Part shown: positions 17,571-56,823 of the stretch, piece by piece | Layout: every line of letters begins with the position of its first letter | Position numbering within the stretch: position 1 is the stretch's first letter | Source: Escherichia phage vB_EcoM_SP1 | Reading direction: 5' to 3' (one strand) | Sequence record: MT682709.1 | DNA length: 64,000 nucleotides | Notes under the pieces: model-generated | What the model was told of the DNA's origin: nothing | Databases searched by the model: none | What the model saw: the letters and a program-made list of their open reading frames with translations, nothing else | Translations under genes and position numbers: made by a program

Positions 17571-18116
17571 ATGACGGTAGCGGCGAAACGATTAGTATTA
17601 GAAGTTAGTTCACTTTTTGGTGAATTGGCTATAGAAAAAGTAAATAATGTGTATCGTTTGACACAAGAAGACGATATGCTGTATTTTACGCCTAGTGAAA
17701 TCATTCATTTAACCAAAATTGAAAATCCTTATACTGATAAAATTGTAAGCATTAATGATGAGCATAAAATTCATTTTTATTCTTCATGCCCAGGATTTAA
17801 TATTGAAAGCGAGTCAATATGCTTATCAATTAATAATTGGGATAATTTTATAACTAACATTAAATATTTTTATGATTCTACTAAAAGAAAACATAATTTA
17901 AAATGGTTTAAAAAATGTAATGCTATTATTACTAACTCCTGTAATCAGAATGATGAAACTATTTTAAATGTTTCAAAATGCTATGAAGAGGGAGATGTAG
18001 TATCTATTCGTCAAATTGACGATTTTCGATCACATATCATTACATTAAACAAAGACGAAGCTATTGCGCTAAAGACTTATCTTGATTCTGTTATTCCAAC
18101 TATGATTTCAAAGTGA
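17571..18116 (+). CDS. hypothetical protein (181 aa), paralogue of 18123..18644
   Basis: Shares PGFNIESESICLSI and VSIRQ...EAIALKTYLDSVIPTM with the next gene. Confidence 0.6.
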   Translation: MTVAAKRLVLEVSSLFGELAIEKVNNVYRLTQEDDMLYFTPSEIIHLTKIENPYTDKIVSINDEHKIHFYSSCPGFNIESESICLSINNWDNFITNIKYFYDSTKRKHNLKWFKKCNAIITNSCNQNDETILNVSKCYEEGDVVSIRQIDDFRSHIITLNKDEAIALKTYLDSVIPTMISK

Positions 18117-54758: not shown

Positions 54759-54923
54759 ATGAAAACATATAAAGAATTTATTAAAGAAGATATGGTAGCT
54801 GGAGATTCAGGTGGTAATCCTGAAAATATCTCTACTGGAACAACGTCAGGCGCTGTAGTAAATAAAGGTCCTGAACAGATTCCTAAAAAGAAAAAAGAGG
54901 AATCTAAAGAAAAAGAAGAGTAA
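54759..54923 (+). CDS. small internal-protein-like peptide with capsid-targeting leader (MKTYKEFIKED), 54 aa
   Basis: ATG 54759 right after previous stop, ends 3 nt before the gene 61 ATG; Gly/Lys-rich tail; below ORF-track cutoff. Confidence 0.5.
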   Translation: MKTYKEFIKEDMVAGDSGGNPENISTGTTSGAVVNKGPEQIPKKKKEESKEKEE

Positions 54924-54925
54924 AA

Positions 54926-55954
54926 ATGTCATCAATACCTTGGATTGATAATGAGTTTGCATATCGTGCGCTAGCTCATTTACCTAAATTCGCACAAGTA
55001 AATAATAGTTCAACTTTTAAATTACGGTTTAGATGTCCTGTTTGTGGAGATTCAAAAACCGACCAAAATAAAGCCCGTGGATGGTATTATGGTGATAATA
55101 ATGAAGGAAATATTCATTGTTATAACTGTAACTATCATGCACCAATCGGAATATATTTAAAGGAGTTTGAACCTGATTTATATCGTGAGTATATCTTTGA
55201 AATAAGAAAAGAAAAAGGTAAAAGTCGTCCAGTAGAAAAACCTAAAGAACTTCCTAAACAACCTGAGAAGAAAATAATTAAATCTCTTCCGTCATGCATT
55301 AGATTAGATAAACTGGCGGAAGACCATCCAATTATAAAATACGTAAAAGCTCGTTGTATTCCAAAGGATAAATGGAAATATCTTTGGTTTACAACTGAAT
55401 GGCCTAAATTAGTTAATAGTATAGCACCAGGAACATATAAAAAGGAAATACCTGAGCCTCGTCTTGTTATTCCAATTTATAATGCTAATGGAAAAGCTGA
55501 GTCTTTTCAGGGACGTGCATTAAAGAAAGATGCTCCCCAAAAATATATCACCATCAAAGCTTATCCTGAGGCAACAAAAATTTATGGTGTTGAACGGGTT
55601 AAAGATGGCGATGTATATGTTCTAGAAGGACCTATAGATTCGCTTTTTATTGAAAATGGTATAGCTATTACAGGCGGTCAATTAGACCTAGAAATTGTTC
55701 CATTTAAAGATAGACGTGTATGGGTTTTAGATAATGAACCTCGTCACCCTGACACTATTAAACGAATGACTAAATTAGTTGATGCAGGAGAAAGGGTTAT
55801 GTTTTGGGACAAATCTCCCTGGAAATCAAAAGATGTTAATGATATGATTAGAAAGGAAGGTGCAACCCCTGAACAAATTATGGAATATATGAAAAATAAT
55901 ATTGCCCAAGGGTTGATGGCTAAAATGCGGCTATCTAAATATGCTAAGATTTAA
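54926..55954 (+). CDS. 61: DNA primase gp61
   Basis: 342 aa; zinc-binding CPVCGDS...CYNCNYH and TOPRIM-like region; position as T4 gene 61. Confidence 0.9.
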   Translation: MSSIPWIDNEFAYRALAHLPKFAQVNNSSTFKLRFRCPVCGDSKTDQNKARGWYYGDNNEGNIHCYNCNYHAPIGIYLKEFEPDLYREYIFEIRKEKGKSRPVEKPKELPKQPEKKIIKSLPSCIRLDKLAEDHPIIKYVKARCIPKDKWKYLWFTTEWPKLVNSIAPGTYKKEIPEPRLVIPIYNANGKAESFQGRALKKDAPQKYITIKAYPEATKIYGVERVKDGDVYVLEGPIDSLFIENGIAITGGQLDLEIVPFKDRRVWVLDNEPRHPDTIKRMTKLVDAGERVMFWDKSPWKSKDVNDMIRKEGATPEQIMEYMKNNIAQGLMAKMRLSKYAKI

Positions 55955-56151
55955 ATTAACCCAACTAAAGCAAATGCTAAATCCACGAATGTATCAAGAG
56001 TAATTACTGGAATACTAACGCCATGAGCAATAGCAACTGGTGATAAAACAAAATTCCAAAGTAAAATTCCTATCATAGCAGAAATAGTAAAAGCTATACG
56101 TTTTTTATTACCTTTGATGGCATTAACAAGTGCCATTAATTTTTGTACCAT
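55951..56151 (-). CDS. small membrane protein (66 aa) on the opposite strand
   Basis: Reverse strand reads TAAGGAGGACATATG (strong SD plus ATG at 56151); two hydrophobic segments; stop overlaps the end of gene 61. Confidence 0.55.
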   Translation of the reverse strand: MVQKLMALVNAIKGNKKRIAFTISAMIGILLWNFVLSPVAIAHGVSIPVITLDTFVDLAFALVGLI

Positions 56152-56222
56152 ATGTCCTCCTTATTGCTTTATATATTTATTGTATAATTAATCTACTAAT
56201 CCATGAATTGAAAGGAAAAATA

Positions 56223-56741
56223 ATGGCATACTTTAATGAATGTTCACAATTGATCGAAGGCGCTGATAAAGCTCAAAATGAATACTGGGATATTCTCGGT
56301 GATGAAAAAGACCCGCTGCAAGTTATGCTTGATATGCAAAAATCTCTGCAAGTTCGTTTAGCTAAAGATAAACCTGAATATAACCGTCATCCTGATGATT
56401 TGGCTACTGCTGGTGAAGTTGTTGATTGGCTACGTAATCAGAAAGATTATATTGACGATGAATTCCGTGAACTTCTGACATCTCTTGGCGGTATGAGCAA
56501 TGGCGAAAAAGATGCATCTGCTGTATGGAAGCCTTGGAAAGCTCAACATGGTGAACGTCGTGAAACTCTGATTACTGATTTGTCTCCACAAGACCAGTTG
56601 GAAATTAAATTCGAAATGATTGATATTCTTCATTTCGTTCTGAACATGTTCCAAGGTCTTGGTCTTACGGCTGAAGAAATCTTTAAACTTTATTATCTGA
56701 AAAATGCTGAAAACTTCGCTCGTCAAGACCGAGGTTATTAA
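56223..56741 (+). CDS. 56: dCTPase/dCTP pyrophosphatase gp56 (MazG-like)
   Basis: 172 aa from ATG 56223; MAYFNECSQLIEGADKAQNEYWD...; the longer track ORF starting at 56130 is an upstream extension. Confidence 0.85.
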   Translation: MAYFNECSQLIEGADKAQNEYWDILGDEKDPLQVMLDMQKSLQVRLAKDKPEYNRHPDDLATAGEVVDWLRNQKDYIDDEFRELLTSLGGMSNGEKDASAVWKPWKAQHGERRETLITDLSPQDQLEIKFEMIDILHFVLNMFQGLGLTAEEIFKLYYLKNAENFARQDRGY

Positions 56742-56823
56742 TAGCTCGTTTATTTAAACGACGACTTAAAAGCCGCGAGAATTATTATAAATAATCATGT
56801 AATTTAAATAAAAGGAGAATTAC

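Follow-up and report, generated by a model that had tools for sequence, protein, structure and literature searches.

The window analysed in this study is a stretch of 64,000 nucleotides from Escherichia phage vB_EcoM_SP1 (MT682709.1). In this window, gene 61 (DNA primase, 54926-55954, plus strand) and gene 56 (dCTPase, 56223-56741, plus strand) are separated by a gap of 268 bp (55955-56222), as read from the sequence. The gap holds an open reading frame (ORF) on the minus strand. The ORF list and the sequence place its coding region at 55951-56151, stop codon included: it starts with an ATG at 56151, runs for 66 codons and ends with a TAA at 55953-55951. The ORF converges with gene 61, the stop codons of the two genes sharing 3 nt, and diverges from gene 56, with an ATG-to-ATG distance of 71 bp. 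The gene order in the window is 61 - ORF - 56 - soc.

A Shine-Dalgarno (SD) sequence, TAAGGAGG, was read directly at 56156-56163 on the minus strand, 4 nt before the ATG; the sequence 5' of the ORF is TAAGGAGGACATATG. The product is a small membrane protein of 66 residues that belongs to the family PHROG 2024 and whose sequence includes MVQKLMALVNAIK. The initial annotation of this DNA had described a 66-aa minus-strand ORF in the 268-bp gap between genes 61 and 56, and its coordinates and upstream sequence agree with our reading. The description of the product as a small membrane protein, encoded on the strand opposite to nearly all of its neighbors, was also borne out.

Predicted anatomy of the protein

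Two transmembrane (TM) segments had initially been assigned to the protein. The first of them is robust. Residues 19-42 have a summed Hessa free energy of about +0.4 kcal/mol and a mean Kyte-Doolittle hydropathy of 1.98. The second, the C-terminal segment of residues 47-66, passes the Kyte-Doolittle threshold, but its best 19-residue stretch scores +6.2 kcal/mol in the window protein and +5 to +11 kcal/mol in the orthologues. It is therefore marginal as an independent TM helix. In the orthologue of phage KP182, the C-terminal part clearly lacks the length and the hydrophobicity needed to cross the membrane.

The AlphaFold2 model, calculated from an alignment of only six sequences, shows helices at residues 2-12, 16-42 and 52-65 with a mean pLDDT of 74.7. 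The lysine-rich amphipathic helix of residues 1-18 has a net charge of +5, against -2 for the part from residue 43 onward; the terminal residues are hydrophobic. As is characteristic of inner-membrane proteins, a hydrophobic helix of about 20 residues is thus combined with a positive-inside charge bias. From these features we infer a single-pass topology with the N-terminus inside, in which the acidic, hydrophobic C-terminal helix would lie at the periplasmic leaflet or be weakly folded back.

A cluster of residues that are invariant in the family, W32-N33...P38...G44...P48, occupies the half of the TM helix nearer the periplasm and the turn after it. It is well known that helices commonly associate through an Asn buried in this way. 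Together with the conserved motif near the periplasm, this residue therefore suggests that the protein self-associates or binds a membrane partner.

Conservation and coding status

A tblastn search with the protein matched 695 phage records, and the match always lay beside the primase gene. Orthologues were found at the same place and in the same orientation in all eight Tevenvirinae genera sampled, the Karamvirus member being a probable one that came from the fold search described below. Beyond Tequatrovirus, orthologues were fetched from Mosigvirus (RB69ORF029w), Gaprivervirus (VR20 and TH15), Kanagawavirus (ZX14 and KLB31), Dhakavirus (MX01), Gelderlandvirus (CGG4-1) and Jiaodavirus (KP182). 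In every genus representative fetched, the frame is open for 61-74 codons, directly 3' of the primase gene and on the opposite strand. The flanking intergenic DNA is no longer alignable across the genera, yet the frame of the ORF stays open. At the equivalent position, the ORF was absent from five T4-like phages outside the Tevenvirinae, namely Krischvirus KFS-EC, Pseudotevenvirus GAP161, Aeromonas phage 31 (Biquartavirus), Bragavirus Pm5461 and an unclassified Klebsiella strabovirus.

The window protein matched the profile of PHROG 2024 with an E value of 1.9e-30, residues 2-66 aligning with profile positions 1-65 of 65. The orthologues of Dhakavirus, Jiaodavirus and Gelderlandvirus matched the same profile with E values of 1e-24 to 1e-28. 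PHROG 2024 is a family of unknown function that includes RB69ORF029w, F25_0032, VR20_029 and MX01 ORF29, all of the same length class, position and orientation as the window protein. The window protein is an ordinary member of this family and has no distinguishing trait. The family is already catalogued and the gene is annotated in phage F25; the gene itself is not new.

The ORFs of the window and T4 differ at nine synonymous and five non-synonymous sites, which gives a dN/dS of 0.15. A similar value, 0.16, was obtained between the ORFs of VR20 and TH15. Between genera, the synonymous sites are saturated, and the frame, the length and the residues M1, W32, N33, P38, G44 and P48 are invariant. 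As judged from these substitution patterns, the ORF is under purifying selection at the protein level. Upstream of the ORF, a GGAGG or GGAG core was found at the same place in all nine orthologous regions.

Comparison with F25 and T4

An 801-bp query around the gap was 100% identical to the Tequatrovirus phages vB_Eco_F25 and vB-Eco-KMB39, and 589 phage records matched it. In F25, the ORF is annotated as F25_0032, a hypothetical protein. In the T4 reference genome (NC_000866), the gene order is 61 - the same ORF - dam - 56 - segF (69) - soc. The 61-dam gap of T4, 309 bp in length, carries no annotation in NC_000866. The 66-codon ORF is present in it in the same relative orientation, at 17738-17938 on the plus strand of that record. 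The historical T4 records X01416 and K03113 do not annotate the ORF either. The T4 and window proteins are 92% identical: five of the 66 residues differ, four of them conservatively (V/I, S/N) and one by a change from A to T. The T4 ORF resembles the window ORF in having the same type of SD sequence, an ATAAATA box and a 3-nt stop overlap with gene 61. It differs in the late promoter box, which is GATAAATA in T4 and AATAAATA in the window, and in the dam cassette, which lies beyond the ORF in T4 and is missing from the window.

The homology between the window and T4 was divided into two BLAST blocks. Window positions 55900-56162 aligned with T4 positions 17989-17725 (92.8% identity), and window positions 56183-56300 aligned with T4 positions 16825-16708 (88% identity). 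These breakpoints indicate that T4 has about 900 bp extra, comprising dam and its promoter, where the window has 20 bp. A tblastn search with T4 Dam and SegF gave no match in the window or in the remaining ~103 kb of the F25 genome. The gene order and the tblastn result thus agree with the initial claim that dam and gene 69 (segF) are absent between gene 61 and soc. According to the initial annotation, its interpretation would be refuted if T4 showed the same arrangement with dam located elsewhere. This is half the case: the ORF is present in T4, but dam is found between it and gene 56 there.

The initial annotation further proposed that the ORF could be a remnant of a replaced module. This candidate was rejected. 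T4 has the 92% identical ORF beside gene 61 with dam beyond it, and this coexistence of the ORF and dam is incompatible with the ORF being left over from a replacement of dam. The absence of dam would instead be a separate indel, in which the ~0.9-kb cassette of T4 (dam and its promoter) is placed between the late promoter of the small gene and the middle promoter of gene 56. Insertions have occurred recurrently at the junction of the ORF with gene 56.

Dam was found in 182 phage records at an identity of at least 90%, and the ORF in about 500 records at an identity of at least 80%. Judging from these numbers, the dam-less state appears to be that of the majority in Tequatrovirus, about two thirds of the records. 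RB69 and VR20 share the dam-less order 61 - ORF - 56 - soc. A T4 mutant clone (OL964745), in which the ORF appears frameshifted, was considered as evidence that the ORF is dispensable and was not accepted. Since dam is also split in this record, sequencing or indel errors are suspected.

Predicted late promoter of the ORF

In T4, the early and middle transcripts are of one polarity, and the other strand is used by late transcripts only (PMC2988020). Because the ORF lies on the strand that is unused by early and middle transcription, late-only expression is predicted for it. In the T4 late genes, a TATAAATA-type box precedes the transcription start by about one helical turn and there is no -35 element; their expression depends on gp55, gp33, gp45 and DNA replication. 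In the window, a putative gp55-type late promoter box, AATAAATA, occupies 56181-56174 of the minus strand. Measured to the ATAAATA heptamer, its distance from the ATG is 29 nt. The box is the A(-13) variant of TATAAATA. Among the 50 listed T4 late promoters, 32 are perfect, and A(-13), which occurs in 9 of the 50, is the commonest variant (PMC2988020).

The position of the box is conserved. In eight of the nine genus representatives, ATAAATA precedes the ATG by 19-29 nt, and CGG4-1 has ATTAAATA in place of an ATAAATA-type box. In most genera the box is off the consensus at its first base; the perfect TATAAATA octamer is present in ZX14 and MX01. The heptamer is depleted three-fold in the window, with 14 copies versus 42 +/- 7 in shuffled sequences. 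Three copies are on the minus strand, and only the copy at the small ORF precedes an SD sequence and a substantial ORF. As a positive control, the plus strand carries TATAAATA at 56786, just upstream of soc, and X01416 annotates the putative T4 late promoter P(L)15.32 at the corresponding soc site. From the sequence of the box and its position, the small gene would be transcribed late in a gp55-dependent manner, with a start near 56168 and a leader of about 17 nt.

The predicted middle promoter of gene 56 and the embedded hairpin

On the plus strand, the sequence and the homology with T4 predict a middle promoter of gene 56 at 56162-56188, the counterpart of the T4 promoter P56/69 (the oriA promoter). 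It consists of a MotA box, TATTGCTTTA (56162-56171), an 11-bp spacer and a perfect -10 element, TATAAT (56183-56188). The consensus of the MotA box is wwwTGCTTtA, located 12 +/- 1 bp from the -10 element, and T4 P56/69 is among the listed middle promoters (PMC2988021). At the homologous position of T4, X01416 annotates the mot-box and the -10 element of P(M)16.53. The homology between the window and T4 resumes exactly at the -10 TATAAT.

The late box of the small gene falls within the spacer of the predicted middle promoter. The two divergent promoters therefore physically overlap in the dam-less phages, whereas they are separated by the dam cassette in T4. Since this cassette lies beyond the T4 ORF, about 0.9 kb separate the T4 late box from the gene 56 middle promoter, and there is no overlap.

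A pattern scan and folding detected a terminator-like hairpin (11 bp, -12.4 kcal/mol) at 56114-56139 on the plus strand, followed by TTTTT, so that the whole element extends over 56114-56144. The hairpin sits in codons 5-13 of the minus-strand ORF, on the primase-sense strand, and judging from its form it could terminate the transcripts of gene 61. T4 has a shorter form of the hairpin. It was not found in RB69, VR20, ZX14, MX01, CGG4-1 or KP182, representatives of six other genera. The hairpin is thus at best genus-specific, and perhaps fortuitous. An embedded terminator had been a candidate for the cause of the conservation of the ORF. Since the hairpin is absent from the six genera outside Tequatrovirus, it does not explain this conservation.

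Searches for function

A full-text literature search found no publications on the ORF. A word-indexed search of 5.8 billion proteins gave 33 matches, all of them close relatives, the names of which were uninformative except for one 'Holin'. An exhaustive profile search of 1.84 billion representatives gave seven matches, six of which were family members or fragments. The seventh, a protein of 1255 aa, was weak and was judged to be spurious. Searches of Pfam, NCBIfam and the PDB, both with the single sequence and with the family alignment, returned nothing meaningful. In a fold search of BFVD with the AlphaFold2 model, where a 66-residue helical model at a pLDDT of 75 gives meaningless matches, only family members were above the noise; one of these is the probable Karamvirus orthologue. 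No paralogue was found when the family HMM was compared with all six-frame ORFs of the F25 genome.

The names given in the source records are 'hypothetical protein', except for 'Holin' in one UniRef/BFVD entry and 'putative head morphogenesis protein' in phage BW-1. These two labels are without homology support and were not adopted. Because the searches revealed no homology to a known function or structure, the functional assignment is based solely on the anatomy of the protein.

Discussion

We consider it probable that the ORF is a real and conserved gene, independent of dam, for a small inner-membrane protein that is expressed late. In the mechanism that we propose, the variant late promoter AATAAATA, at a distance of about 29 nt from the ATG, would be used by the gp55-RNA polymerase to transcribe the small gene, and the strong SD site would then drive translation of the ORF. 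When the product of about 7 kDa enters the inner membrane, its lysine-rich, amphipathic N-terminus would remain in the cytoplasm. The single TM helix would hold the invariant Trp-Asn pair in the middle of the membrane, and the Pro...Gly...Pro turn would be located at the periplasmic face. The short acidic C-terminal helix would lie at the outer leaflet or fold back as a weak second helix.

As to what the protein does, we tentatively propose a late, non-catalytic accessory factor of the inner membrane that acts at the envelope, in lysis timing, lysis inhibition or envelope integrity. This is one possibility among several, and we advance it with reserve. The lysis system of T4 is already genetically complete, and we know of no unexplained lysis locus between genes 61 and 56.

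The protein might itself be a holin, a pinholin or an antiholin-like lysis protein that, as infection ends, opens lesions in the membrane or controls their formation. Its small size and hydrophobicity, the polar residues in its TM segment (N33, and D27 in one subgroup), the predicted late promoter and the name 'Holin' of one UniRef/BFVD member speak for this. Class II holins and pinholins such as phage 21 S68 are likewise small and late membrane proteins with polar residues within a TM helix. The name, however, is a depositor's label without supporting homology, and the protein matched no holin family of Pfam, NCBIfam or PHROG even at E<=10. It shows no sequence or profile similarity to the class II holins. 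Holins of classes I and II have at least two robust TM domains and a charged hydrophilic C-terminal tail. In the protein, only one TM segment is robust, the second being marginal, and the charged cytoplasmic C-terminal tail and the dual-start motif of the class II holins are missing. In addition, T4-type phages use the unrelated T holin, and the F25 genome already contains genes for a canonical T holin (F25_0250), rIII and a spanin. A holin-like function is therefore unlikely.

A role in superinfection exclusion or in envelope protection, similar to that of Imm or Sp, would fit an inner-membrane protein that is restricted to the Tevenvirinae, and sp is a nearby gene of this region, at a distance of about 2 kb. 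Imm and Sp are likewise small envelope proteins confined to the T-even-type phages, but they are encoded by early genes on the other strand than the small ORF. Exclusion by imm and sp in T4 is set up within minutes by early genes. The protein has no similarity to Imm or Sp and no paralogue in the genome, and the strand of the ORF predicts late-only expression (PMC2988020). We thus regard a function in exclusion as improbable as well.

Still less can be said for a helper of morphogenesis, for example a membrane anchor or chaperone for the initiation of proheads at the inner membrane. Co-expression with the structural genes would be expected of such a helper, and the GenBank record of BW-1 carries the label 'putative head morphogenesis protein'. 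This label lacks homology support, however, the function of the PHROG family is unknown, and nothing ties the protein to gp20 or gp40. We consider such a role quite unlikely.

It could also be argued that the protein is incidental and that primase expression is lowered late in infection, either by a late antisense transcript that extends into the 3' end of gene 61 or by the embedded terminator. The stops of the two genes converge with a 3-nt overlap, a scan found no minus-strand terminator between 55600 and the stop of the ORF, and the terminator-like hairpin of the plus strand lies within the ORF. This explanation is nevertheless very improbable. Purifying selection acts on the amino acids, and residues remain invariant despite saturated synonymous divergence; moreover, about 200 bp separate the ORF from the primase gene in VR20, and the hairpin is not conserved outside Tequatrovirus.

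Finally, it is hardly conceivable that the ORF is spurious, a frame left open by chance antisense in AT-rich intergenic DNA: many spurious antisense ORFs of 30-98 codons do occur in the window, but the strong SD sequence, the conservation in eight genera, the dN/dS of 0.15 and the conserved promoter box are against it, and the purifying selection on the protein together with its invariant residues excludes a chance ORF.

A conserved gene for a late inner-membrane protein is therefore the interpretation that we retain. The gene is conserved throughout the eight Tevenvirinae genera sampled, with purifying selection acting on it, but it is missing from the T4 records NC_000866, X01416 and K03113. 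Omics and screening studies based on the T4 reference annotation would not score this ORF. The observation has a small yet real practical value: T4 has been studied intensively, and its reference annotation still lacks the gene. The interest of the finding is mild and is limited to this absence. As for the layout without dam and segF, it does not represent a replaced module and appears to be the commoner state.

For the biology of these phages, the wider meaning can be put forward only as a speculation that we hold to be rather doubtful. The late microprotein, present throughout the subfamily, may be an unrecognized part of lysis timing or lysis inhibition, of the initiation of proheads at the membrane, or of late protection of the envelope, and in the dam-less phages, occupancy of its late promoter could also help to silence the gene 56/oriA promoter.

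Insertions at the junction of the small ORF with gene 56

The junction between the minus-strand small ORF (55951-56151) and gene 56, which encodes the dCTPase, is a recurrent insertion site. The corresponding interval of the window (56163-56182) was compared with the loci of T4 (L002), the Dhakavirus MX01 (L007), the Kanagawavirus phages ZX14 (L006) and KLB31 (L016), JE01 and GRNsp7. The inserted DNA is dam in T4, a hypothetical gene together with dam in MX01 and a mazG-like or 94-aa ORF in the Kanagawavirus phages; JE01 and GRNsp7 carry a homing endonuclease at this site.

In the Krischvirus KFS-EC, the gap between the primase gene and the dCTPase/dUTPase gene (2327-2918 of its locus L010) is 592 bp long and unannotated, and it contains a long plus-strand open frame. 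This frame occupies the expected position of the small membrane ORF. Judged by eye, its motifs resemble those of an HNH/AP2-type homing endonuclease.

Several labels in public records are doubtful. In the Tequatrovirus F25 (F25_0034) and KP182 alike, the 54-aa homologue of gene 61.1 is named "major capsid protein". For the small membrane ORF itself, CGG4-1 has the name "dCTP pyrophosphatase", and BW-1 lists it as a "putative head morphogenesis protein". The positions given for these labels are 54759-54923 of the window (F25_0034), 2332-2556 of locus L008 and the BW-1 record OR125554. These labels are likely to be annotation errors. In the record of a mutant T4 clone, T4_7t1 (OL964745; L021), the small ORF and dam both appear frameshifted or split. 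These disruptions are probably indel sequencing errors and not a sign that the small ORF is dispensable.

Transcription signals around the small ORF

An 11-bp hairpin followed by TTTTT is located at 56114-56144 on the plus strand, in the sense of the primase gene (gene 61), and lies within codons 5-13 of the small ORF. Transcripts of gene 61 could end here by intrinsic termination. The hairpin is also present in T4, in a shorter form; no counterpart was found in six other genera.

The late-promoter heptamer ATAAATA is depleted about 3-fold in the whole window (14 copies vs 42 +/- 7 in shuffles), as would fit selection that keeps stray late promoters out. The plus strand holds 11 of the 14 copies, eight of which form full TATAAATA boxes, and one such full box lies at 56786, just upstream of soc.

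The late box of the small gene, AATAAATA, is on the minus strand, within the spacer between the MotA box and the -10 element of the plus-strand gene 56 middle promoter (56162-56188). The two promoter elements thus overlap in the window, whereas in T4 they are separated by about 0.9 kb because dam sits between them. It is conceivable that occupancy of the late promoter and use of the oriA-type middle promoter would be mutually exclusive.
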